Assembly (NCBI GenBank): GCA_025449535.1
Contig: JANWJF010000001.1
Coordinates: 549,136 to 613,135 of the forward strand
Source of the DNA: Candidatus Saccharimonadia bacterium
Lineage (GTDB): Bacteria > Patescibacteriota > SICC01
Direction of reading: 5' to 3'
DNA: 64,000 nucleotides
Shown here: in pieces, positions 6,413-63,155 of the stretch
Layout of the letters: each line of letters starts with the position of its first letter
How positions within the stretch are numbered: position 1 is the stretch's first letter
Position numbers and translations under genes: made by a program
Notes under the pieces: generated by a model
What the model saw: the letters and a program-made list of their open reading frames with translations, nothing else
What the model was told of the DNA's origin: nothing
The model's database searches: none

Positions 6413-6470
6413 ACCCACCAGGCCGTCGAAAACATTTGCGTGCCTGCGGGTACTACAATGGTAGGCACCA

Positions 6471-6543
6471 GGCCCTGTAGCTCAGTGGACAGAGCGTCTC
6501 CGTCCTAAGGAGAGCGTCGGGGGTTCGAATCCCTCCAGGGCCT
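6471..6543 (+). tRNA. tRNA-Arg (anticodon CCT)
   Basis: Cloverleaf with acceptor GGCCCTG/CAGGGCC, a D arm, anticodon stem tctcc/ggaga with loop gtCCTaa, and T arm gggggttcgaatccctc. CCA is encoded. Confidence 0.9.
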
Positions 6544-6585
6544 CCAAAGCCGCCACCCCGCCGGTAGGGTATACTGTGTCCGCTA

Positions 6586-11151: not shown

Positions 11152-11224
11152 CCGCTATCGCCACTCGGTGAATAATCCCGATATACTGGTACGGTATGCG
11201 TTTCGCATACGTGCACCTTCGGGG

Positions 11225-11285
11225 CCGTACTTCGTACGTCCCCTCGTCACTCGGAAATGATCAAGCAAGCTTGTCATTTCTCTCG
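11225..11285 (+). promoter_or_regulatory. conserved two-hairpin module upstream of tRNA-Asp (ccgtacTTCgtacg … TCGGAAATG-palindrome-CATTTCTCTCG)
   Basis: The same architecture recurs before three other tRNA genes (see findings). Confidence 0.5.
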
Positions 11286-11291
11286 TTCCTC

Positions 11292-11366
11292 GGGGGCGTA
11301 GCTCAGTCTGGTTAGAGCGCCTGCCTGTCACGCAGGAGGTCGCCGGTTCGAGTCCGGTCGTCCCCG
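11292..11366 (+). tRNA. tRNA-Asp (anticodon GTC)
   Basis: Acceptor GGGGGCG/CGTCCCC and anticodon loop ctGTCac. CCA is not encoded. Confidence 0.9.
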
Positions 11367-11390
11367 CATAAGTGGTCTAATATAAAACCC

Positions 11391-14727: not shown

Positions 14728-15019
14728 AACAGGCGGAACATGCGCATGGTCACGCCCGCTGCAGGAACCCTAGCAAGTACAACATGAACGTGAAGGTTAC
14801 GGTGATCGCGTACAGCTCGAAGCGCGCCCCGGTATCCAGGAAGGAGGCGATCACGAGTGACGCGATCCATACAACGACGATACTGATGAGGACGAAGAGG
14901 TACTTCAAGAAAACGCGTATTTATCTTCCCCTGTGCCTCAAGGATATCACCTTTTCTCCAAGCACCTGCCACGCCTAGGTTGCAAGTCATCAGGCATGCT
15001 ATCCTTATCCGTTCGCATT

Positions 15020-17476
15020 ATGAATGAAGAGAATCCAGAGTCGGAATGGTTGACTGCCGAAGCCTCCCGGTGGGCGTTCGATGAGACCGTATGGAATCTG
15101 CTTGTAACAGCCCCACATAACCCGCAGGGCCTTACGGTTGGCAGCATGGCGGAATACGTGGCCAGGCGGTATGTCCATCGTGCACGCGGGCTGCCATCAG
15201 AACATACCGATGTCAGTAATGTGGACTTTTCCGGGTTGACCGAAAACGAGCCTTTACCTGGGCCTGAGCCCACCGAACCGGGCGCCAAGCCTGATGATTC
15301 TGGTACCGTCGACTTGGCGAAAGGCGACATCAGTCCCGAAGATCAGAAGGAAATCATGGATTCGTTGATCTTGGCAATCGCCCGGCATTACGACATCCAG
15401 CCCATCGATCTCATGATGGGTGATCGCAAACGCAAGCTCTACAAGCCCCGTCGCGTAGCCTGCTACGCGCTCCGGAACTACGCTAGGATGCCGTTCGATG
15501 ACGTCGCCAGGATCATCGGCGGAACGAGTGCATCGGCGGCATACCAGTCGGCGCTGAGAGTCCGTAGGGAAGATCTTCCTCGGGATATCGAATTACAACG
15601 TGACCTGGTCAGAATCCGCCAGGCCATCCCTCCAGAGCACCGACGTTACATTGCTGACGACGACCTGTTCGACCCGGTCGTGCTTGAAGCGACCGAAGGG
15701 GAGTTCACGCCTGGAGCAATAGAGCCAACCGAGGTCGAGAAGCCGGAAGGAATCCCGGAGGTTCCCATTGGTGACATCATTTTCGAGGTGTGCCGGCAGT
15801 TGGAGGTGACCCAGGAGCAACTGGTCGCCAAGCGGTCTCGGTACGAGAACCGACCGCTGCAAATCGCCGCTTTGCTGGCTGATGAGCTGACCGACTTTTC
15901 ACACGAGAAGATTGGAGCCGAACTGGGAGACCGGTCCGCTCCCGGTATCAAGTCATTGGTGAACCGGGCCGCCCAGGTGATTCCCGACGATCCCGAGTGG
16001 TCCGGACGTTTCCAGGCGGTCAAGGAAGCGCTGCTGATTAGGCATGGCATTCCGGTCGACGGATTGGATGGTGATTCAAGCCAGAATCCGCTGTTCGACA
16101 TGTTGGACGAACCAGGAGAACGGGATGACATCGGGCCGGTCGAAATCGCCCCCGGGGCACCGGAAGCGGCTGAACTCAGTGTCGAGCCCGATGGCCAGTC
16201 TGATGCCGACGAGGAAAAACCGGAAGTCCTGATAGGCGACGAACCGGGGGAAGAAGATGTGGCTCCGGAGGAAGTCGGCGATCCGGAAGGAACGACTGAT
16301 GGTACGGCGGCGGGTGGAGAAAAATTGGCCGAAGAAGTAACCCCGCTTGTGGACGATGAGGAAACTGATGATGAGGCACTCGGCCAGGAGACGATTGAAC
16401 TTTCTACCGAGGGAAGCCGGGCCCAATATACCGAAGAAGGTATCCAAGAGACCATCAAGGCGGTACAAGAAGGGGAAAAGGGTGCGGAAAATGATTTGCT
16501 GTCCAGCCTCCAGCCGAAGTTCGTGGGAGCTGTCGGGGGAGAACGACTTTCGGGATCCAAACGGAATGCCCGCTTAGCGGAGCTCCGCAGCGATGCATTG
16601 GTAGCTGCTAGGCGGTACGACCTTCGTGCGAAGAAACCTATCCTTGAGGCGATTGCAGAGGTGCGGGCGGAGCGGATTCTCCGGCAGGAAAGAACGCAGG
16701 AAGGACTGCAAAAATTGGTGCCTGAACCCTTGCCTGGAGAAACGGACATTGCAAGGGATATCCAAGCTGATTCCGAAGCAGCAGAGCGGCTCCTCCGACA
16801 TTACGATGGAATGATCGACGGCATCACGACCCTTTGTGTCGGCAAGAAGCTCGATGCGGAGGTGAAACAGCTGCTCCGGACGGCCGCAGAAAGCCAATTT
16901 CTGACTGCGGCGAGATACTTTCATACCAGCGGCAATGAGCATTTCGGACTCTGGTGCGCCAAGAGCATCAGCGTCGCCTTGCACAAAGAGATTGAGAAAC
17001 CCAAAGTGGCGGAGCAGCTTGATGCGGCGGAAGAGGAAGCCATCGTGGAAGAGCCGGACGAAACGACCAGTGCAGTCGAGGAACCACCTAAGACAAAACC
17101 CATCTCCACCAAGGCTCCTGTCGTCCTGCCCAAGGACCGGACCGAGCATTTGTTGCCGGTAGGATCCCTGGCGGTCATCGTAGGCAATCAGGAGGAACGG
17201 GTGACCAGGGTTAGGATCAAGGATCCGGAAAAGGACAACACCATAGTGACGAATCTCGAAATACTGGAACAAAATATCAGGGCCAATCCGCACATCATCT
17301 GTGGCACGAATTCACCTGTCCTCATCCCCCTATCGGTACTGGCACGGATACGAGAGGACGACTCGTTTAGAAAGCAATGGCTTGAGCAATGTCACAATGG
17401 GTATACTCCGGATTCGGTCCGGATGATAGAGCGCAACATCGACGCGGCATTGGCTGATCCATTGTTGGCTGCCTAG
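15020..17476 (+). CDS. large acidic protein with two DnaA domain-IV-like HTH domains and a distinct C-terminal domain (hypothetical regulator)
   Basis: Residues ~125-190 (IQPIDLMMGDRKRKLYKPRRVACYALRNYARMPFDDVARIIGGTSASAAYQ) and ~260-330 (…AKRSRYENRPLQIAALLADELTDFSHEKIGAELGDRSAPGIKSLV) match the DnaA C-terminal pattern. A long Asp/Glu-rich linker follows. GC is lower than the flanks. Confidence 0.7.
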   Translation: MNEENPESEWLTAEASRWAFDETVWNLLVTAPHNPQGLTVGSMAEYVARRYVHRARGLPSEHTDVSNVDFSGLTENEPLPGPEPTEPGAKPDDSGTVDLAKGDISPEDQKEIMDSLILAIARHYDIQPIDLMMGDRKRKLYKPRRVACYALRNYARMPFDDVARIIGGTSASAAYQSALRVRREDLPRDIELQRDLVRIRQAIPPEHRRYIADDDLFDPVVLEATEGEFTPGAIEPTEVEKPEGIPEVPIGDIIFEVCRQLEVTQEQLVAKRSRYENRPLQIAALLADELTDFSHEKIGAELGDRSAPGIKSLVNRAAQVIPDDPEWSGRFQAVKEALLIRHGIPVDGLDGDSSQNPLFDMLDEPGERDDIGPVEIAPGAPEAAELSVEPDGQSDADEEKPEVLIGDEPGEEDVAPEEVGDPEGTTDGTAAGGEKLAEEVTPLVDDEETDDEALGQETIELSTEGSRAQYTEEGIQETIKAVQEGEKGAENDLLSSLQPKFVGAVGGERLSGSKRNARLAELRSDALVAARRYDLRAKKPILEAIAEVRAERILRQERTQEGLQKLVPEPLPGETDIARDIQADSEAAERLLRHYDGMIDGITTLCVGKKLDAEVKQLLRTAAESQFLTAARYFHTSGNEHFGLWCAKSISVALHKEIEKPKVAEQLDAAEEEAIVEEPDETTSAVEEPPKTKPISTKAPVVLPKDRTEHLLPVGSLAVIVGNQEERVTRVRIKDPEKDNTIVTNLEILEQNIRANPHIICGTNSPVLIPLSVLARIREDDSFRKQWLEQCHNGYTPDSVRMIERNIDAALADPLLAA

Positions 17477-20891: not shown

Positions 20892-20945
20892 ACGGCTATC
20901 ATACTCGATATACTAAAAAATGGTCCCGACTTCGTTTCACAACAC

Positions 20946-21749: not shown

Positions 21750-22261
21750 ATGAGATTCGAACGCGGTAACTTCGGCGTCGATACGGTGGATGGACGGGTA
21801 CTGTCCGTCCTGGTCTACACGCAGCCTCAGATGGCGACGAGACTCCTCTGCGAACATATGCGCCGGCCCGGATTCGACCACGCCCTCGCGGAGCAGGTGA
21901 TGCCGTATCTCGACCGGATCAAAAACGACTACATGGTCCGCGAGGTGGTGGAAACAGGAAGGCTTCCGAGGATCCCTGCGTACGCTTGGCGTTCGCTGAT
22001 CAGATCGGCATGGTGGCGCGACGGGACCGGAACGACGCCTACGCCTTGCTCAGTGCGGCGTGCTTGGAAGACCGGTCCGCGATGCCTGACCTGGTCCGGG
22101 CCGGATTGCAGGCGGTCCAGCGGGACGCTCCCGAGGAATACCACTTCCTGGTCAAGAAGGGGCTCCACGAGATGCAGAAGGAGCTCAGGCCGGGCGCGCT
22201 CGCCCGGCGCCAGCGAATCAATCGCCGGTTCCGCCGGGCGCTCGAAGCGATAGGGCAGTAA
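21750..22261 (+). pseudogene. hypothetical gene split over two frames (possible frameshift or two short ORFs)
   Basis: Frame 0 reads MRFERGNF…RLPRIPAYAW and degrades into low-complexity sequence. Frame 2 from ~21965 reads …LAFADQIGMVARRDRNDAYALLSAACLEDRSAMPDLVRAGLQAV… to 22261 and looks protein-like. Confidence 0.4.
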
Positions 22262-22278
22262 GCTAAACTGGACGGTGC

Positions 22279-32401: not shown

Positions 32402-34699
32402 CTACGGGGCGACGACCTTCAGCAGCATGTTGTACCCCGGGTCGGGGAACCAGGCCGCGCCATCTTGCACCAAGGAGAAGTACTCCCGGTAGGTGCCGGG
32501 CGCAGGAGCCGCGGTCAGGGGTACGCTGAACAGGGCGATCTGTCCCGGCTCGATCATGGTGTCGGCGCCGTTCACGGTCATGTTGCCGCTGAGGTCGGTG
32601 ACCGTGCCGTCTATCGTCGAAGCCCGGTTGGCGTTCAGCCACGGGTCACCGCCGGTGAGGGTCCGGAAGGCGGAGCTGCGGTTCTGCGGGTGGGTCGTCG
32701 CCAACCGGACGGGGTTGGTCCCGCTCGCGGACCAGGTGAGGCGGCCGGTATTCTTGATCGCGACCCGGGCGGTCATCGTGCTGTTCCGGGCGAAGGATTG
32801 CTGGTTCCCGGAGTAGACGGTCTTCATGAACTGGAGGTTCCGGGCGACCGCTACCGGTACGGGGAAGTTGATTCCGTAATCCTCGGGCAGCCAACCCACC
32901 CCGTCCATCACCGGTCGGACGTAGAGCCGGTAGTTGCCGGCGCCCAGGCTGTCCGGGATCGTGATCGTGAAGTCGAACTCGGCGACCTGACCGGGATCCA
33001 CCGTCGTATCCCCGGGCGCGCCCACCACGGAATCCACGGCCGACGGCCGGTTCCGGGCGATCCAGGGGTCGGGTCCCGTGGTAGTGATGAAGGCGGACTT
33101 GTGGTCCCGGGCCCGGTCGGTGCCGAGCCTGAGGTTGCCGTCCACCGGCCAGGCTTCCCGTCCGGTGTTCTTCAGGCGCACCGTGACGTCCTGCTCGGTC
33201 ACGCCTGGGGTGATCGTCGCGGGGTCGGCCGACTTGGACACGTACGAGTAGTGGTAGCCGCGGTCCAGGATGTTGAAGAGCACGGAACTGCCGGTATCGG
33301 ACATGTGCTTCTTGCCCTCGACCACCGGGGAGAAGTACTCCCGGATGTTGCCGACCTTGTCCGGCGTGGTGGTCACGAACGAGAAGACGGCGATCTCGCC
33401 GGTCGTGATCGTCGCGTCCGCCACCACGGAATCAGTTCCCGGATCGTACCGTCCGTCGATGGCGGAAGCCCGGTTCTTGTCCGGCCAGTTCTCCGAAGCG
33501 TCGATATCTCCCGCCCCGATCGTCCGGAAGGCGCTGGTGCGGTCCGTCGGCCGCCGGGTCGCCAGACGCACGGGGTTGGCCCCGCCGGCGTTCCATTGCA
33601 ACTCCCCGACGTTCCTGACCAGGATCTTCACGCTTCGCCGGTCACCGGGCAAGAGGCCGGAGGGCGAGGCCGTCGAATCGAGGTCCGTCGGCCCGGAGTC
33701 GGGTTCGGTGACGTAGGTCCCGTAGTGTTGGCCGCGCCAGTCCGGCGGCTTGATCGTCATGGTGGCGCAAAGGCCCAGGTCGCGCATCCAGCCCAGGTTC
33801 TCGACGACCGGCGCGAAGCACTCCGGGTAAGTGCCCGGGTTACCGCTCGACTTGAACGTCGCCCGGAACTGCGCCAGCTGGCCCGACGGCGTGTCGTCCA
33901 ATAGTTCGATCCGGTTGCGGGTCAGCCATCCCTCCGCGGTCCCGCCGTCCGAGAACCCGCTGCCGCGGTCCTGCGGCCGGTTGCCGCCGAGACGCACGGG
34001 CGTCGATCCGCCCTTCAGCCACGTCTGCCGTCCGGTGTTCCAAAGCTTGAAGGTCATCACGGACTCGCCGTTGCTGTTCATGGACCGGTTTCCGGAAATC
34101 GCGGCACCGACGTAGTCGTAGTTGGAACGTCGGTCGTTCACGTACTTGCCCGATGCGACCCAGCCGGCGCAGCAACTCGGCTCGTACCCGTGGATGGTGT
34201 GGTCGTAGGAACCGGTCCCGGCCTTGTAGGTGGCCTGTCGGATCCCGAAGTGGGTGTGCGGATCCCAGTTGCCGTTTACCGATCCGCGCGGTCCGACCGT
34301 CCCGATGCGCTGGCCTTTCTTGACCGTCGCCCCGGCCCCGACGCGCCGGTCGTTGTTGAGGTGCCCGTAGAGGCTCAGGATCGAGCTGCTCTTCCAGCTA
34401 TGCTGGATGATGATCAGATTGCCCCAACGGTACGAGTCGGGCGTCCGGGCCGAGTACTTCACGACGCCGTCGGCTGCGGCGAACACCGGGATGCCGTCGT
34501 TATGACAGACGTCCTCCGCGACGTGATATCCCCACCCCCCGATGTACTGGCCGTACGCGTAATTCGGCGTCCCGTACGGGAAGCAGGGAATCTGGAACGA
34601 GGACGCGGCCTTGGCGTCCGCGGGCCCGACCGTCAGCACGAAGGCGGCCGCGGTGATCGCGGCGGCCGTGCCGAGCAAGAATGTCAGTATTGATTTCAA
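32402..34699 (-). CDS. secreted M23 (LytM-type) metallopeptidase followed by four ~120-aa repeats of an unrecognised domain
   Basis: Signal peptide. M23 motifs HVAEDV…GHLNNDRRVGAGATVKKGQRIGTVG…HTHFGI. The repeat consensus is NTG..xW..GG.NPVRLGT.RP.DRSSAF…NRAS.IDG…PGQ.A.F.F…PG.YREYF.PV.EG..W. The start is TTG. Confidence 0.8.
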   Translation of the reverse strand: MKSILTFLLGTAAAITAAAFVLTVGPADAKAASSFQIPCFPYGTPNYAYGQYIGGWGYHVAEDVCHNDGIPVFAAADGVVKYSARTPDSYRWGNLIIIQHSWKSSSILSLYGHLNNDRRVGAGATVKKGQRIGTVGPRGSVNGNWDPHTHFGIRQATYKAGTGSYDHTIHGYEPSCCAGWVASGKYVNDRRSNYDYVGAAISGNRSMNSNGESVMTFKLWNTGRQTWLKGGSTPVRLGGNRPQDRGSGFSDGGTAEGWLTRNRIELLDDTPSGQLAQFRATFKSSGNPGTYPECFAPVVENLGWMRDLGLCATMTIKPPDWRGQHYGTYVTEPDSGPTDLDSTASPSGLLPGDRRSVKILVRNVGELQWNAGGANPVRLATRRPTDRTSAFRTIGAGDIDASENWPDKNRASAIDGRYDPGTDSVVADATITTGEIAVFSFVTTTPDKVGNIREYFSPVVEGKKHMSDTGSSVLFNILDRGYHYSYVSKSADPATITPGVTEQDVTVRLKNTGREAWPVDGNLRLGTDRARDHKSAFITTTGPDPWIARNRPSAVDSVVGAPGDTTVDPGQVAEFDFTITIPDSLGAGNYRLYVRPVMDGVGWLPEDYGINFPVPVAVARNLQFMKTVYSGNQQSFARNSTMTARVAIKNTGRLTWSASGTNPVRLATTHPQNRSSAFRTLTGGDPWLNANRASTIDGTVTDLSGNMTVNGADTMIEPGQIALFSVPLTAAPAPGTYREYFSLVQDGAAWFPDPGYNMLLKVVAP

Positions 34700-34761: not shown

Positions 34762-37488
34762 TCAATCGCTGGCCTGGGGCGATCCGACGACGCTGCCTGA
34801 CACCACCAGGCTGTGGTCCGGGAACCAGGCCCGATTCTCCTGGACCAACCGGAAGTATTCGTTGAAGTGGCCGACGGTGCTGGCGGTGACGGTGAAGTTG
34901 AACAGGGCCGTCTCGCCGGGCAGGATCTCCGTGGCCGGGGTCGAATCGAAGGTCGTGACGTTGAGCACGCGGCCGTCGATCCCGGACGCTCGATTTGCCG
35001 AGAGCCAGGGGTCTTCGCCGGCCAGTGTCGCGAACGAGGAAGACCGGTCCGTCGGGCGGGCGGTGCCCAACCGGACGCGATTGACGCCGCTGACGGGCCA
35101 AGCGTACCGTCCCGTGTTCTTCACCGCGAGCTGGACCACGGCGGTGTCGCCCGTGCGCAGGTCACTCAGGTTCCGGGAGGCGGATTGTCCTACCACCCGG
35201 TAGTCGTAGGTCTGGGCGGTGACGTTCAGTGGCACGGAGATGCCGCGGTCGGGGAACCAGGCCTCGCCCTCGCGGACCAAGTTGAACCGCTCCGTGCGCG
35301 CGCCGCCCTCGACCTCGGAGCTCACCTGCATCGGCACGTTGAACTGCGCGATTTCTCCCTGCTTGATCTCGGCCGCGCCTGTATCCAGGGAATCGCCGTC
35401 AACGCGCCCGTCGATCCCGGAGGCCCGGGTCGGCGAGAACCAAGCGTCGGCGCCGGTCAGCGCGGCGAAGGCCGAGGAGCGATCCTGGGGTCCGCTGGTC
35501 CCGAGCCGGACCGGACTCGGGCCGTCCACCGGCCACGGCACGTGGCCGTGATTCCGAATCCGGACGGTGGCGGTGACCGTGTCACCGTAGCCGAGGTCCG
35601 CCGGGTTCTGTGAGTAACGTTGGCTGACCACCCCGTAGTCGTAGTCCCCGGAGCGCACGGTGACCGGGACATACTTGTCCGATTCCCGCAGCCACTCCTT
35701 GCCGTCGATCACCGGTCGGAAGTACTCGCGATATGACCCGTCCGGCTTGGAGGCCGACTTCACCTGGAAGTCGAACCGGGCGATCTGGCCGGGGTCGACC
35801 ACGTCCTCGGCCGGCGCGTCGGCCACGGCGTCGATGGTGCTGGCCCGGCTGGCGGAGATCCAGTCCGGGCCCCGGAACGCGGATGACCGGTCGCGTTTCC
35901 GATCGGTGCCGAGCCGGAGCGGACCGCCGACCTTCCATGAGGACTGGCCGCTGTTCCGGATGTAGACCCGAGCCGTCTCGGTGTCGCCGCCGAGGGATAT
36001 CGGATCAGGGTCGTCCTGCTTCACCCATGCGTAATGGTTGCCCTTGGGCAGCACGCGCAAGCCGAAGTGAAGGTTGGCATCCAGCCAACGATCGCCCTCG
36101 ATTACCGGCCGGAAATGCTCGCGGTACTCGCCCGACTTGCTGGGAGACTTGACAGTGAACGAGAAGACGCCGATCTGTCCCGGCTTCACGGCGGACGCGG
36201 GGGTGATCCGGCTCTCCGACGGGATGTAGATGCCGTCCAGTTTGGACGCGCGGTTCCCGGCAAGCCATCCTTCGCTGCCGGGTACCCGGCCGCCGGACTT
36301 CACGGCGAACCCGCTGCGCCGGTCGCGGCGATGCTCGGTCCCGAGCCGTACGGGATGCTTGCCGCCCGCGTTCCAGGCGAAGTCGCCGGTGTTCTTAATG
36401 TAGGCTTTCAGGTTCACGAGGGTGCCGCCGGCCAAATACCGGTGCGTGTCCGTCCGGGTCAGGGAGACCGGGGAGAGGTCGTCATGGGCCGTGACGCGGT
36501 AGCCTTGGGCTCCGTACCGCGGCAAGCGGACCGTCACCTTAGCGTGCATACCGGTGTCCCGCATCCAGCCGACGCCTTCCACGACTGGCCGGAAGTACTT
36601 ATGGTACGTCCCCGGCTTCACTCCCTTGTTGTTGAACCGCGCCCGGAAGACGGCGGTCTGGCCGGGGGCGGTGTCGGACTGCATCTCGATCCGGCTGGGA
36701 TTCAGCCAGCCGTGTCCGCCCATGCCGGCCGAGAAGGCGGTGCGGTGGTCTCGCGGACGGTCGGTCCCGAGCCGTACGGGGTTGGCGCCGCCCTTGCTCC
36801 AGGTTGCGGTGCCGGTGTTCCGCAGGCGGAACTCGACCCAGTATTCCGAGGACTTGCCCTGAACGGTGGCCCCGGTCTGCGAGATATGGCTGTAGTTATA
36901 CGTCGGCTGCCGCACCTGACGGTTCTGGATATAGCGGGTCGGGTGGGTGTAGCGGTTGATCTCTCCACCGCGCTCGTACCCGTTGATCAGGGACCAGTAG
37001 CTTCCGGTCGCCGTGCCGTAAGACCCGGGCGTGATCGAGAAGTGGAGGTGCGCTCCCCAGCGGCCGTTCTCCCGGGTGTGTCCTGGGCCGATGGTACCGA
37101 TCCGTTGGCCCTTGCCGACCCGCTGTCCGGCGCTGACCCGGCGGTCGTTGCCAAGGTGTCCGTACAGCCCGACCGCCCGCGACCCGTCGTCATGTTCGAT
37201 CATGATCAGGTTGCCCCAGCGCCAGGAGTCCGGCGTGAGCGCAGAGTACTTCACCGTGCCATCGGCGATCGCGTAGACCGGTGTCCCGGCCCGGCACCCG
37301 ATGTCCTGCCCGGAGTGATACCCCCAACCGGAGACGAACTGGCGGAAGTCGTAGCCGGACAAGCGCCAGGGGGAGCAGCCGTACTGGTACCCGGAAGCCG
37401 CGTGGCTGGGTCCGGCACCGACGAACGCCGCGGCGGCGATCAGGACCGCTGCCGTCATTCCCAGGATGAGTGTCTTCCGCCTATGCAT
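34762..37488 (-). CDS. secreted M23 metallopeptidase paralogue followed by ≥5 copies of the same ~120-aa repeat
   Basis: Signal peptide MHRRKTLILGMTAAVLIAAAAFVGAGPSHA. M23 core YHSGQDIG…GHLGNDRRVSAGQRVGKGQRIGTIG…HLHF. The repeats resemble those of the adjacent paralogue. Confidence 0.8.
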   Translation of the reverse strand: MHRRKTLILGMTAAVLIAAAAFVGAGPSHAASGYQYGCSPWRLSGYDFRQFVSGWGYHSGQDIGCRAGTPVYAIADGTVKYSALTPDSWRWGNLIMIEHDDGSRAVGLYGHLGNDRRVSAGQRVGKGQRIGTIGPGHTRENGRWGAHLHFSITPGSYGTATGSYWSLINGYERGGEINRYTHPTRYIQNRQVRQPTYNYSHISQTGATVQGKSSEYWVEFRLRNTGTATWSKGGANPVRLGTDRPRDHRTAFSAGMGGHGWLNPSRIEMQSDTAPGQTAVFRARFNNKGVKPGTYHKYFRPVVEGVGWMRDTGMHAKVTVRLPRYGAQGYRVTAHDDLSPVSLTRTDTHRYLAGGTLVNLKAYIKNTGDFAWNAGGKHPVRLGTEHRRDRRSGFAVKSGGRVPGSEGWLAGNRASKLDGIYIPSESRITPASAVKPGQIGVFSFTVKSPSKSGEYREHFRPVIEGDRWLDANLHFGLRVLPKGNHYAWVKQDDPDPISLGGDTETARVYIRNSGQSSWKVGGPLRLGTDRKRDRSSAFRGPDWISASRASTIDAVADAPAEDVVDPGQIARFDFQVKSASKPDGSYREYFRPVIDGKEWLRESDKYVPVTVRSGDYDYGVVSQRYSQNPADLGYGDTVTATVRIRNHGHVPWPVDGPSPVRLGTSGPQDRSSAFAALTGADAWFSPTRASGIDGRVDGDSLDTGAAEIKQGEIAQFNVPMQVSSEVEGGARTERFNLVREGEAWFPDRGISVPLNVTAQTYDYRVVGQSASRNLSDLRTGDTAVVQLAVKNTGRYAWPVSGVNRVRLGTARPTDRSSSFATLAGEDPWLSANRASGIDGRVLNVTTFDSTPATEILPGETALFNFTVTASTVGHFNEYFRLVQENRAWFPDHSLVVSGSVVGSPQASD

Positions 37489-55963: not shown

Positions 55964-56037
55964 TATGGCGGACGTACGGTAGCTCTCTCGGCGGGAACGT
56001 CGAGGGGGCTTTTGTATATCGGCTAAGATTGGTACAT

Positions 56038-56112: not shown

Positions 56113-57219
56113 ATGGTGACCCGTCGGAAAATCGTATCAACATTCTTTCTGCTCGCCGTCATCGGCGGCGGGCTGCTCTACGCCGACTACCAGTCGAAGG
56201 CGATGGAGCGGCGCGACGCAGAGCGCCGCGCCGCGGTCACCGCACTCAAGCGGACGCTGGATTCCCGGAGCACGCTTCCGGCCAGGGACGGTACGCTCAA
56301 GGCGAGGGCCACCGGAGGGCTCGCCGAGCTCGGTACGGCGCCGAAGCGGCCGGAGGATACGACGATCAACTACGCTGTCTCGTTGGACGCACGGACGTAC
56401 TTCGTCTGCACGGCGCTGGAGCGCGGCGGCGCGCTCTACGCCACCCGGCAGGGTACGTTCGACGGTCCGACGGAGAGCTGCCGCCCGGACGCCGATCCCG
56501 TCGCCGTGGGCTACGTTCTGGACGCGAAGCTGACCTCCGCGGGCGCCCGGGCGTTCCTGCGCGCGGACCCGGCGTTCGTCAGCAAGGGATTCATCCAGGA
56601 GAAATGCGCGGCTACCGCTGATGACGGGCAGCTGCAGGGCTGCTTCACCGGCGACCGGATCTACCTGATCGACCTGCCGGACGAAACGATCCGTCCGGAG
56701 GTCTCGGTCACCGCGGCGCACGAGACGCTGCATGCGGCCTGGGAAGGGTTGGCGTCGGAAGAACGCGAGCACCTGACCCGATTGCTCGAGAATCTTGCCC
56801 GGAAGCGCCCCGACCTGCAACGCGAGGCGGATTCGTACGATGAGGAAAGCCGGATCAACGAGCTGCATTCGATCGCAGGGACCGAGATCAAGGACGTCGG
56901 CAAGGAACTCGAGCGGCATTACGCGGAGTTCTTAAGCGACCGCGGGCTGATCGTGAAGCGGCACCTGGACTATGAGAAGGTCATTGACGGCCTGGAGGCG
57001 GAGATCGAGCGGCTCAAGGATGAGCTCACGGCGCTCGAGGCGCGCGGCCAGGCGCTCCTGGATAGCGGCGACATCGACGCGTACAACGCGTTCGTGGCGG
57101 AGTACAACTCCCGCGCGCCGGGAATGGTCGCGGAGATCAACGCCAAGGTCGACCGTTTCAACCGGCTCACGGAACACACCCGCCCGGACGGCCGGGTGGC
57201 CCCCGCCTCCGCGCGGTGA
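56113..57219 (+). CDS. membrane-anchored hypothetical protein with HExxH motif and C-terminal coiled-coil
   Basis: The ATG lies 2 nt after the tRNA-Pro 3' end. N-terminal TM helix, AHETLH motif, and a C-terminal coiled-coil (IERLKDELTALEARGQALL). Confidence 0.55.
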   Translation: MVTRRKIVSTFFLLAVIGGGLLYADYQSKAMERRDAERRAAVTALKRTLDSRSTLPARDGTLKARATGGLAELGTAPKRPEDTTINYAVSLDARTYFVCTALERGGALYATRQGTFDGPTESCRPDADPVAVGYVLDAKLTSAGARAFLRADPAFVSKGFIQEKCAATADDGQLQGCFTGDRIYLIDLPDETIRPEVSVTAAHETLHAAWEGLASEEREHLTRLLENLARKRPDLQREADSYDEESRINELHSIAGTEIKDVGKELERHYAEFLSDRGLIVKRHLDYEKVIDGLEAEIERLKDELTALEARGQALLDSGDIDAYNAFVAEYNSRAPGMVAEINAKVDRFNRLTEHTRPDGRVAPASAR

Positions 57220-57246
57220 GTTAGAATAGGGACCGTTATACGCGGG

Positions 57247-57310
57247 TGTACTCTGTACATCCGCGGCGTCGTTCGGAAATGCTAGAGTAAACTCTGCGTT
57301 TCCTCACTCC
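57247..57310 (+). promoter_or_regulatory. conserved two-hairpin module upstream of tRNA-Gly(TCC)
   Basis: tgtacTCTgtaca … TCGGAAATGctagagtAAactctgCGTTTCCTCAC, as in the other three loci. Confidence 0.5.
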
Positions 57311-57312
57311 TT

Positions 57313-57384
57313 GCGGGTGTCGTATAACGGCTATTACACCAGCCTTCCAAGCTGGGAATGCGGGTTCGATTCCCGCCACCCGCT
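57313..57384 (+). tRNA. tRNA-Gly (anticodon TCC)
   Basis: Acceptor GCGGGTG/CACCCGC and anticodon stem ccagc/gctgg with loop ctTCCaa. CCA is encoded. Confidence 0.85.
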
Positions 57385-57503
57385 CCACGCATCCGACCAC
57401 GGTCCATCCCTCGTAGCCTTGACTCAGGCACGGATTCGTGCTACTATTGGTCAATTTTCCGCTCCGAAGGCACGCGGCGCGCGAAGATAAAAAACCAATA
57501 CGC

Positions 57504-57830
57504 ATGCTTGCCACCGTCTTTCAAGGAGTCTTCGACACCACCTATGACATCACGTTCCGGGACCGCCTGCCGACCTTCGGCACGGGCCGCGACAAGATCA
57601 CCAAGGGATACATCGACCCGTTGAACGATCGCATCGTGATCCGGCGGGGACTTTCCGCGGACGACCGGGCGCTCACCTTGCTCCATGAGGTCGTCCACGA
57701 CTGCTATCCGGACTGGAGCGAACGGGACGTGGAGGAATGCGCGCGATTCGTCTACGACAACCTCTCGAACTCCGACCAGGGCATCGTCCAGTTCCTGGCC
57801 ACCGATCCCCAAGAGACCAGATCACGATAA
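57504..57830 (+). CDS. small HExxH zinc-metallopeptidase-like protein (SprT/ImmA-like)
   Basis: LLHEVVHDCYPDW carries the HExxH motif. Start chosen at the internal ATG (MLATVFQG…). 109 aa. Confidence 0.45.
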   Translation: MLATVFQGVFDTTYDITFRDRLPTFGTGRDKITKGYIDPLNDRIVIRRGLSADDRALTLLHEVVHDCYPDWSERDVEECARFVYDNLSNSDQGIVQFLATDPQETRSR

Positions 57831-57836
57831 CCGTCC

Positions 57837-57858
57837 AACCGACCGCAGGCGGTTTTTT
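57837..57858 (+). terminator. Rho-independent terminator (aaccg…cggtt hairpin + TTTTTTG)
   Basis: ccgtccaaccgaccgcaggcggttttttgc lies immediately after the stop at 57830. Confidence 0.65.
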
Positions 57859-57885
57859 GCTGCACGGATATACTACGGTTGCGCC

Positions 57886-57948
57886 CCGGTACTACGTACC
57901 GGAGCTCGGCACTCGGAAATGCTAGAGTGAACTCTGCATTTCTCTCGC
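57886..57948 (+). promoter_or_regulatory. conserved two-hairpin module upstream of the tRNA at 57954
   Basis: ccggtacTACgtaccgg … TCGGAAATGctagagtGAactctgCATTTCTCTCGC. Confidence 0.5.
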
Positions 57949-57953
57949 TTCTC

Positions 57954-58025
57954 GCCCCGGTAGCTCAGCGGAAGAGCAGGAGACTTCTAAGCTCAAGGCC
58001 GTAGGTTCGAATCCTACCCGGGGCA
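57954..58025 (+). tRNA. tRNA-Arg-like (anticodon TCT) with atypical anticodon stem
   Basis: Perfect acceptor (GCCCCGG/CCGGGGC), D and T arms. The anticodon loop CTTCTAA is identical to E. coli tRNA-Arg(UCU), but the anticodon stem GGAGA/GCTCA pairs only 3 of 5. Confidence 0.6.
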
Positions 58026-58042
58026 CATGGCCCAGGACGACG

Positions 58043-58077: not shown

Positions 58078-58129
58078 TCCGGGCGATGAGCGAGGGCATA
58101 ATGGTTGTGGGCATGGCATGGTGGCTATA

Positions 58130-62949: not shown

Positions 62950-62971
62950 GGCTATACTGTAAGCACTCGCG

Positions 62972-63040
62972 CCCGTATGCTCGCATACGGGTCGCTCCTC
63001 GTTCGGAAATGCTAAAGTGAACTTTGCATTTCACTCACTC
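62972..63040 (+). promoter_or_regulatory. conserved two-hairpin module upstream of tRNA-Arg(TCG)
   Basis: cccgtatgCTCGcatacggg … TCGGAAATGctaaagtGAactttgCATTTCACTCAC. Confidence 0.5.
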
Positions 63041-63043
63041 GTT

Positions 63044-63117
63044 GCGCCCGTAGCTCAGCGGATTAGAGCACCTGGCTTCGGACCAGGGGGTCGGAGGTTC
63101 GAATCCTTCCGGGCGCG
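63044..63117 (+). tRNA. tRNA-Arg (anticodon TCG)
   Basis: Acceptor GCGCCCG/CGGGCGC and anticodon stem cctgg/ccagg with loop ctTCGga. The T arm is ggaggttcgaatccttc. Confidence 0.75.
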
Positions 63118-63155
63118 CAGGACATGGTCCGCGGAGAGGTACGTATACTGGGCAC

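Follow-up and report, generated by a model that had tools for sequence, protein, structure and literature searches.

Short palindromic modules at tRNA gene 5' ends of a Candidatus Saccharimonadia bacterium as likely insertions of a repeat family shared with Bacteroidales

The 64,000-nucleotide (nt) stretch of Candidatus Saccharimonadia bacterium analysed here (contig JANWJF010000001.1 of assembly GCA_025449535.1), hereafter the window, carries four copies of a two-hairpin module, each immediately upstream of a tRNA gene. [quoted passage not shown] The simplest reading of each copy is an insertion of approximately 60–70 nt with an 8–11-bp direct duplication of the target. The inverted target copy makes for an unusual insertion signature, and the distribution of the family over two phyla is unusual as well.

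Four tRNA genes preceded by a two-hairpin module

Our coverage of this genome comprises the window and about 9 kb on each side, about 83 kb in all. The window has a GC content of about 62% and belongs to a small-genome bacterium; its genes include those for ATP synthase, RNase Y, an M16 peptidase, a SurA-like peptidyl-prolyl isomerase (PPIase) and M23 peptidases. ARAGORN and Rfam identified nine tRNA genes, all on the + strand. The pattern GGAAATG-N11-19-CRTTTC has exactly four matches, also all on the + strand (11253-11280, 57275-57302, 57915-57942 and 63005-63032), against a chance expectation of 0.04 matches per shuffled window, and none of 100 shuffles reached four. With filters off, a covariance model trained on 40 family members (R1) retrieved solely these copies in the window, at 50-63 bits, the next match on the same strand scoring 11 bits. 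The tRNAs behind them, assigned by ARAGORN and Rfam, are Asp(GTC), Gly(TCC), Arg(TCT) and Arg(TCG). These are the loci named in an earlier sequence-only reading of the window, which was also right that the module is absent from the five other window tRNAs. The flanks contain two more tRNAs (Lys and Gln) and zero further copies. The tally is, thus, four copies in about 83 kb, every one at a tRNA 5' end, with 4 of 11 tRNAs carrying one. Independent assemblies of this organism (JGI, NCBI and Logan) contain the copies as well. The features of the four units, all on the + strand, are as follows.

tRNA-Asp(GTC) unit
11182..11187, +, -10 box TATACT, read directly; atcccgaTATACTggtacgg also occurs in the relatives L167, L168 and L169
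11193..11210, +, putative ancestral leader hairpin GGTATGCG-ttt-CGCATAC, outside the inserted element; the empty-site relatives L168 and L169 have a homologous hairpin there
11221..11243, +, hairpin 1: 5' arm GGGGCCGTAC, a decoy of tRNA nt 1-9 at the presumed original tRNA start; loop ttc; 3' arm GTACGtCCCC, the inverted copy (sequence, folding, relatives)
11251..11284, +, hairpin 2: TCGGAAATG-ATCAAGCAAGCTTGT-CATTTC-TCTC (pattern; R1 59.8 bits; L167 orthologue with compensatory core changes)
11292..11367, +, tRNA-Asp(GTC), nt 1-9 of which form the downstream member of the duplication (ARAGORN, Rfam)

tRNA-Gly(TCC) unit
57222..57227, +, -10 box TAGAAT; gtgagTTAGAATagg is found in the window and in the empty-site relatives L162 and L165
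57242..57264, +, hairpin 1: GCGGGTGTAC-tct-GTACATCCGC, the 5' arm being tRNA nt 1-8 (sequence, folding, relatives)
57273..57305, +, hairpin 2 (pattern; R1 50.3 bits)
57313..57387, +, tRNA-Gly(TCC) (ARAGORN, Rfam)

tRNA-Arg(TCT) unit, the locus originally flagged
57869..57874, +, -10 box TATACT, with a terminator-like hairpin at 57837-57854 before it
57882..57905, +, hairpin 1: CGCCCCGGTA, equal to tRNA positions -1 to +9, then C-tac-G, then the inverted copy TACCGGaGC (sequence, folding, relatives)
57913..57946, +, hairpin 2: TCGGAAATG-CTAGAGTGAACTCTG-CATTTC-TCTC (pattern; R1 58.3 bits)
57954..58026, +, tRNA-Arg(TCT) (ARAGORN, Rfam)

tRNA-Arg(TCG) unit
62953..62958, +, -10 box TATACT; relatives have TATAAT at the equivalent place
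62969..62995, +, hairpin 1: GCGCCCGTATG-ctcg-CATACGGGtCGC, the 5' arm being tRNA nt 1-9 (sequence, folding, relatives)
63003..63036, +, hairpin 2 (pattern; R1 62.7 bits)
63044..63118, +, tRNA-Arg(TCG) (ARAGORN, Rfam)

The general form of hairpin 2 is TCGGAAATG-core-CRTTTC(N)CTC, with a palindromic core. In all four copies, the CATTTC arm lies 11-12 nt from the tRNA start, and the element's end (CTC) lies 7-8 nt from the tRNA 5' end. Both hairpins are predicted in each leader, with folding z-scores of -3.4 to -6.6. Hairpin 2 is predicted to have an outer stem of 7-8 bp (GGAAAUGN/NCAUUUC), a bulged U, an inner stem of 4 bp and a loop of 4 nt. Two details of the sequence-only reading needed correction. 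The outer arms GGAAATG/CATTTC are not strictly invariant, since in the Gly copy the 3' arm reads CGTTTC, giving one U·G pair, and the N before CTC is missing. The bulged T, described as conserved in every copy, is present in all four window copies but missing from many family members elsewhere.

Hairpin 1 copies the start of the downstream tRNA

Hairpin 1 had been described as a GTAC-type palindrome; that palindromic part is there, but the hairpin is longer. At the four loci, the 5' arm (U) directly repeats 8-10 nt from the start of the tRNA behind it, and the 3' arm (A') is an inverted copy, that is, the complement, of U. Set against the respective tRNA starts, the copies read GCGCCCGTAtg (tRNA, GCGCCCGTAG), cGCCCCGGTAc (cGCCCCGGTAG), GCGGGTGTac (GCGGGTGTCG) and GGGGcCGTAc (GGGGgCGTAG). 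The resulting direct repeats of 8-11 bp are GCGCCCGTA, CGCCCCGGTA, GCGGGTGT and the pair GGGGcCGTA and GGGGgCGTA.

The layout consists of a -10 box, 8-14 nt, U, a short tip (C-tnc-G type), A', 7-8 nt, hairpin 2, 7-8 nt and D, the real tRNA. A' is, therefore, situated between the upstream repeat and the conserved hairpin 2, and pairs with U into hairpin 1. The Asp locus is exceptional in having the putative ancestral leader hairpin between the -10 box and U. The targets within one genome are alike, being tRNA 5' ends of the form GSSSSSGTA here and promoter boxes elsewhere, a likeness that fits insertion directed by homology or by a guide, and also template switching.

Empty and filled sites in relatives

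Syntenic contigs were identified through homologues of the ABC-2 permease adjoining tRNA-Arg(TCG), namely L162 (75% identity), L164 (51%) and L165 (45%). All three keep the tRNA order of the window (Pro(TGG), Gly(TCC), Arg(TCT), His and Arg(TCG)), and R1, run with filters off on 46 kb of these contigs, gave no match at E<=1. Their Gly(TCC), Arg(TCT) and Arg(TCG) genes are empty sites with a -10 box 8-9 nt before tRNA +1, as exemplified by gtgagTTAGAATaggattcgt followed by GCGGGTGTCG, and TATAATtccacgtac followed by GCGCCCGTAG. The filled sites of the window have the same -10 box, U at essentially the empty-site distance, the insert and an intact tRNA. The empty sites and the retained -10 boxes point to insertion of ~60-70 nt after tRNA nt 8-10, with the 8-11-bp target duplication.

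Relatives of the Asp locus were retrieved through homologues of the upstream PPIase: L167 (71% identity), L168 (60%) and L169 (53%). The module occurs at the same tRNA-Asp site in L167 (R1 53 bits), whereas L168 and L169 have tRNA-Asp without it and keep the TATACT box and the first leader hairpin. Since this site is filled in the window and L167 and empty in L168 and L169, the Asp insertion appears to be older. The cores of the three copies missing in relatives are near-identical (CTAGAGTGAACTCTG, CTAGAGTAAACTCTG and CTAAAGTGAACTTTG) and the Asp core is different, which fits a later local spread of the Gly, Arg and Arg copies. The search of relatives that the sequence-only reading had proposed thus found one filled site, at Asp in L167, but empty sites in L162, L164, L165, L168 and L169. 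As a test of a cis-regulatory leader kept at orthologous positions, it failed: the module is absent at Gly, Arg and Arg in the first three contigs, and at Asp it occurs only in the nearest relative.

The family in other genomes

An exact-pattern scan for TCGGAAATG-N13-15-CRTTTCNCTC, covering one genome per species, retrieved at least 119 loci. About three quarters of the matches listed have a palindromic core. Among them, the family is found in two phyla. The Patescibacteria include Nomura-, Doudna-, Kaiser-, Moran-, Uhr-, Magasanik- and Saccharibacteria and Paceibacterota, and several metagenome-assembled genomes (MAGs) labelled otherwise were grouped with them. The others are rumen/gut Bacteroidales (Prevotellaceae, Bacteroidaceae and Muribaculaceae), in which nearly every copy has the core CTCAAATAAATTTGG. 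A unit of about 45 nt is conserved, sGY-TCGGAAATG-core-CATTTC-N-CTC-RCT, with a 13-15-nt palindromic core. Both phyla share this extended consensus, flanking sGY and RCT included.

Outside this genome, the family shows no specificity for tRNAs, being located upstream of many unrelated genes with no common downstream gene function. Among the matches listed, the tRNA arrangement recurs only in L087 (tRNA-Pro), L090 (Uhrbacteria tRNA-Arg) and L148, where the tRNA 5' end is likewise copied upstream, and about a quarter of the copies are antisense to neighbouring genes. Some copies sit between convergent genes and others before -10-like boxes (TTGATAATAA, GTACAATAG and TATAGT). In Bacteroidetes, a copy is found ~60 nt upstream of the 16S rRNA 5' end, in antisense (L139 10573-10618, L146 105-150 and L152 8791-8836). 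In four Patescibacteria loci (L056 1813; L059, - strand; L065; L110), the start codon follows CTC by exactly 13 nt (actcatttcgaatATG), within the lower stem and without a Shine-Dalgarno sequence; one of these genes is rpmH (L34). In Bacteroidales, 98% of 51 distinct copies have a TAnnTTTG box starting 10 nt behind CTC, and the 3' arm of the core provides a TTTG exactly 20 nt upstream of that box. Together, they form a complete Bacteroidetes-type promoter before thrS, cysS, topA, dnaX, guaB, ychF and many others.

Multiple copies per contig are also observed, with at least 4 on a 215-kb contig of UBA4787. Tandem arrays contain 2-4 units with a period of 75-82 bp, each unit consisting of a promoter box and a hairpin, and are located as follows.

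L069, 4207-4402
L035, 347-463
L042, 2002-2123
L075, 2246-2522
L091, 3432-3560
L099, 197-323
L149, 7335-7449

Many Bacteroidales contigs end inside a copy (e.g. L016, L025, L029, L066, L102 and, at both ends, L118), indicating that the element fragments assemblies. A scan of viral contigs yielded only 12 loci; most were chance matches lacking a palindrome, or a single coding sequence found repeatedly, and the element thus does not appear to be phage-borne. A metagenome scan with a GC-type core pattern retrieved 25 loci, the window's own contig not among them. One AT-rich, phage-like metagenome contig (L157, 3559-5804) has three copies between or overlapping small open reading frames (ORFs), two of them antisense to genes, and an inverted pair of copies there flanks small phage-like ORFs.

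In the window and 16 related loci, tRNA alone scored above the Rfam gathering threshold, and the element matches no Rfam family; at E<=10 on 57200-58030, Rfam returned the tRNAs and chance matches, leaving the leaders uncovered. Full-text literature searches by sequence and by concept found no description of the element, nor do the GTAG/CGTC REP survey (PMC3733652) and a MITE census (PMC11602168) contain one.

Two further sequence features were observed among family members. The hairpin-1 tip AGGGTATTAACCCT is conserved in several AT-rich Patescibacteria and in a MAG labelled Leptospiraceae (L064). The 3' flank in AT-rich Patescibacteria is nearly always cTTGATAATAA (L034, L041, L050, L085, L098, L105, L114 and L120). 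The CTTGATAATAA box resembles the nick site of rolling-circle Rep/IS91 proteins, CTTG/ATA; an extended -10 box explains it equally well.

Structure, covariation and level of selection

The covariation that the sequence-only reading saw in the cores was upheld in 40 diverse copies, where 89.5% of cells agree with the proposed pairing, compared with 76% when shuffled and 38-55% when slid. The covariation score is 0.335 versus 0.110 in shuffles; double-sided changes are present in 78 cells, and none of 500 shuffles scores as high. At the pair closing the internal loop (-1 with +1), 19 sequences have C-G and 11 have U-A. Complementarity between the 5' and 3' flanks far exceeds that of permuted pairs (P = 1.5e-7 and 1.6e-8), and an upstream direct copy of the downstream flank is significantly frequent (P about 1e-6). 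Between the Asp orthologues of the window and L167, the arms TCGGAAATG/CATTTC are identical and the core differs at three pairs on both sides (A-T to C-G, C-G to G-C and A-T to G-C).

Some of these observations also speak for the best-surviving alternative, a functional cis-acting RNA leader, which we nevertheless think unlikely. In such a leader, the internal loop and the GGAAAUG/CAUUUC helix would bind a widely conserved factor, and A' would pair with either the upstream decoy or a downstream site (the tRNA 5' strand or a start codon), controlling processing or expression. Besides the covariation in the core and at the loop-closing pair and the three compensatory changes at Asp, the identity of arms and flanks across phyla and the start codons lying exactly 13 nt after CTC, in the lower stem, agree with it. 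So do two mutually exclusive predicted folds. Of three precursors folded, two are predicted to form both hairpins and to keep the acceptor stem and T arm intact; a full cloverleaf is predicted for Arg(TCT) only. The minimum-energy fold of pre-tRNA-Arg(TCG) is the competing one, in which the tRNA 3' strand is paired to the decoy and the true 5' strand to A'. Moreover, the hairpin-1 tips of L087 and L090 are cUUCGg-type loops, a hint of RNA-level selection that counts against the insertion of a mobile repeat.

In 65 distinct copies, however, the stems contain 718 pairs, of which 697 are Watson-Crick, 5 are G:T and 5 are A:C, so that G·U is no commoner than A·C and there is no wobble excess on the sense strand. 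This suggests that the palindrome is kept at the DNA level, as a hairpin or cruciform on either strand or through self-templated correction, and such almost purely Watson-Crick stems favour selection on a DNA palindrome rather than on RNA. A leader conserved for its function is also difficult to reconcile with its lack at the orthologous tRNA sites of relatives, with copies in both orientations relative to neighbouring genes, including the antisense ones in Bacteroidetes rRNA leaders, and with the lack of an Rfam match or a shared downstream gene function. In Bacteroidales, furthermore, the -7 promoter box lies downstream of the element, which would leave the last copy untranscribed. The structured leader or RNase P signal put forward in the sequence-only reading is, thus, retained in part. 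The module is probably transcribed as a leader, since it lies downstream of a -10 box common to relatives, but it appears to be an insertion rather than a conserved tRNA feature, and the element also precedes protein and rRNA genes.

Promoter activity and local rearrangement as alternatives

A promoter or operator acting at the DNA level has little chance of being the explanation. Hairpin 2 would carry promoter elements (the -10-like TAGAGT/TAAAGT here, the -33 TTTG in Bacteroidales) or a palindrome for a dimeric regulator controlling tRNA and housekeeping genes. Bacteroidetes promoter boxes obey a spacing rule of 19-21 nt, into which the 20 nt before so many Bacteroidales housekeeping genes falls. 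Likewise, three window copies have the extended -10-like TGcTAGAGT or TGcTAAAGT, and several AT-rich Patescibacteria have a -10-like box (TTGATAAT, TACAAT or TATAGT) 8-9 nt after CTC. The supposed -10 is, however, TCAAGC in the Asp copy and TGGAGC in its L167 orthologue. A sigma-70-type -10 at a fixed place is thus not common to all copies, TAGAGT/TAAAGT being confined to three. The ancestral upstream -10 boxes are kept at all four filled sites, and the core varies freely as long as pairing is kept. The proposal that TAGAGT serves as the -10 box is, therefore, not sustained. A regulator site would not require a self-complementary variable centre, the flanks are asymmetric and a bulge is present, and the four loci with a start codon 13 nt after CTC leave no room for a promoter. 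A consensus promoter scan called no promoter in the element, although it is uninformative for promoters without a -35 box.

Equally improbable is an origin without any mobile element, in which repeated local rearrangement (fork stalling and template switching at a palindrome, for instance) copied the flanks directly and inverted while hairpin 2 spread by gene conversion between similar 5' gene ends. The similarity of targets within a genome, hairpin-1 tips centred on self-complementary tetranucleotides (e.g. GTAC and GGCC) and cores that look block-exchanged between copies suit it, but the same multi-step outcome in two phyla, with the same 7-9 nt spacings on each side of hairpin 2, is hard to obtain without a dedicated mechanism, and the first arrival of hairpin 2 at a dissimilar site remains to be explained.

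Insertion at tRNA 5' ends and its implications

The sequence comparisons show the element inside the 5' end of four tRNA genes, after nt 8-10, with a direct repeat that comprises the initial 8-11 nt of the target. U stays at the old position behind the pre-existing -10 box, and the downstream copy D restores an intact tRNA gene. The inverted copy A' pairs with U, forming hairpin 1. Transcription would still start from the old promoter and produce a leader of 75-100 nt with hairpins 1 and 2, which RNase P would remove at the true tRNA 5' end. Hairpin 1 may additionally stop the decoy 5' fragment from pairing with the tRNA 3' acceptor strand. The predicted folds of whole precursors, two of the three with both hairpins and an intact acceptor stem, support this course of events. 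Insertion would be tolerated here because tRNA processing makes it harmless, and the element would be spread and maintained at the DNA level like a dispersed palindrome of the REP/MITE type. For this genome, the evidence supports the idea, already considered in the sequence-only reading, of a palindromic repeat family targeting tRNA genes (4 of 4 copies at tRNA 5' ends, empty sites in relatives), but that specificity does not extend to the other genomes.

Several points weigh against such insertions. The Asp orthologues keep both arms while three core pairs are changed on both sides, and the arms and the flanking sGY and RCT are identical between two phyla. This constancy looks like purifying selection for a function and unlike the decay of a selfish insert; it could also stem from gene conversion among copies or from self-templated correction of the palindrome. 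No transposase was detected among twenty window proteins scanned against Pfam, and no partner gene was identified. The insert lacks terminal inverted repeats: by inspection, its left end (tip and A') and right end (CTC and 7-8 nt) are not complementary, the conserved inverted repeat being solely internal (hairpin 2). To our knowledge, no transposition mechanism yields a target duplication together with an inverted target copy. The polarity rests on parsimony, as precise deletion between direct repeats could in principle recreate an empty site. Finally, the transcription of the modules and their processing by RNase P are what we infer from their position.

A bolder extension, which we offer tentatively and on balance doubt, is that the family represents an undescribed class of tiny mobile DNA common to Patescibacteria and Bacteroidales. 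Gene 5' ends (tRNA +1, -10/-7 boxes and start codons) would be its homing sites, and it would copy 8-11 nt of the target both directly and inverted, via target-templated or guide-like insertion by a conserved host or element-encoded enzyme. Its insertions would be 'safe' and self-insulating, rebuilding the interrupted tRNA gene or promoter.

Should these interpretations be true, some tRNA genes of a minimal-genome bacterium would acquire long structured leaders purely through insertions, which bears on tRNA processing there. A ~45-nt palindrome with identical arms in two distant phyla, yet missing from Rfam, would imply a common host factor or horizontal movement. Moreover, the element would form the promoter region of many rumen/gut Bacteroidales housekeeping genes and break assemblies, which matters for annotation, promoter prediction and binning. 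The combination of a direct duplication and an inverted target copy, unexplained by known transposition chemistry, could indicate a new insertion mechanism.

Neighbouring genes and other tRNA features

Each tRNA gene has its own -10-like box, including TACAAT, TATACT, TAAACT, TAAGAT and CATAAT (window 6440-6470, 20905-20945, 22255-22278, 56015-56037 and 58095-58120; also L162, L164 and L165), and TATACT looks like the preferred -10 hexamer of this genome. In several window tRNAs and in the empty-site relatives, the box is merely 8-9 nt before tRNA +1, so that such tRNAs would be transcribed almost without a leader. The 3' CCA is encoded by some tRNA genes only, being present in Arg(CCT) and Gly(TCC) and absent from Asp, Thr and Arg(TCG) (including window 6471-6546 and 57313-57387).

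Among other window genes, 32402-34699 (-) and 34762-37488 (-) encode adjoining proteins of 765 and 908 aa with an N-terminal M23 peptidase domain and Ig-like N_BRCA1_IG repeats. The sole Pfam match of an 847-aa protein (14933-17476, +) is the DnaA C-terminal helix-turn-helix domain, found twice. Just left of the window (L170, 2184-5958) lie a tyrosine integrase gene and, after it, a series of small ORFs lacking annotation, which may represent an integrated element; neither a tRNA nor a copy of the hairpin element adjoins it.

Comparison with known systems

By eye, the consensus fits none of the self-cleaving ribozymes, the K-turn, the T-box antiterminator bulge, boxA/boxB, CIRCE or CodY boxes, the formal test being Rfam only. 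Like an ordinary structured tRNA 5' leader, the module is upstream of the mature 5' end and presumably removed by RNase P; unlike one, it is not conserved at orthologous sites, holds a decoy copy of the tRNA 5' end and belongs to a family also found at non-tRNA genes. Ty3 of yeast and TRE5/TRE3 of Dictyostelium are autonomous retroelements guided by Pol III factors that insert near tRNA gene 5' ends. They share with the element a harmless position at or next to the tRNA gene 5' end or transcription start and a short target duplication, whereas the element is bacterial, 60-70 nt long and without coding capacity.

The pair of short segments (U/A and A', 8-11 nt) that matches both strands of the adjacent target recalls the IS110 bridge RNA and the tigRNA of TIGR-Tas (PMC12045711), a resemblance that is formal only. 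The element has no box C/D motifs, Nop-domain-protein array or recombinase gene, and its segments form a stem, not loops. TIGR-Tas arrays (PMC12045711) were rejected as a candidate, as inspection found no RUGAUGA or CUGA in the element, the copies are solitary beside tRNA genes and no Nop-domain gene is adjacent.

MITEs such as the Correia elements of Neisseria (PMC2229807, PMC10969869) are, like the element, small non-autonomous insertions with a target-site duplication, evident here from the 8-11-bp direct repeats and the empty sites. Both occur beside promoters and gene starts, can supply promoter elements, are transcribed (probably so for the element) and fold into hairpins. MITEs, however, have terminal inverted repeats matching a parent insertion sequence, which the ends of the element are not, and their duplications are short and fixed (TA for Correia) rather than 8-11 bp. 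They are also genus-specific (PMC11602168), whereas the element spans two phyla and part of its insert is templated by the target.

The nearest known kind is REP/REPIN, repetitive extragenic palindromes mobilised by RAYT tyrosine transposases and comprising GTAG- and CGTC-tagged families (PMC3733652, PMC3116915). For the element, a Pfam scan of twenty window proteins revealed no RAYT gene. The consensus sGY-TC-GGAAATG...CATTTC-N-CTC-RCT lacks GTAG, and CGTC lies upstream in some copies only. The stem sequence is conserved in both phyla, in contrast to the lineage-specific REP families. The element is found at gene 5' ends and REPs mostly at 3' ends, and REPs have no target duplication, in contrast to the 8-11-bp direct duplication and inverted target copy flanking the element. 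Nevertheless, the element is a short imperfect palindrome with many extragenic copies (4 in the window, and multi-copy contigs elsewhere), and REPs embedded in larger palindromes are on record (PMC3733652). Both are imperfect palindromes of 35-45 nt with a bulge and a conserved unpaired tag beside the stem, dispersed in intergenic DNA, single or clustered, in either orientation, and co-transcribed with their neighbours.

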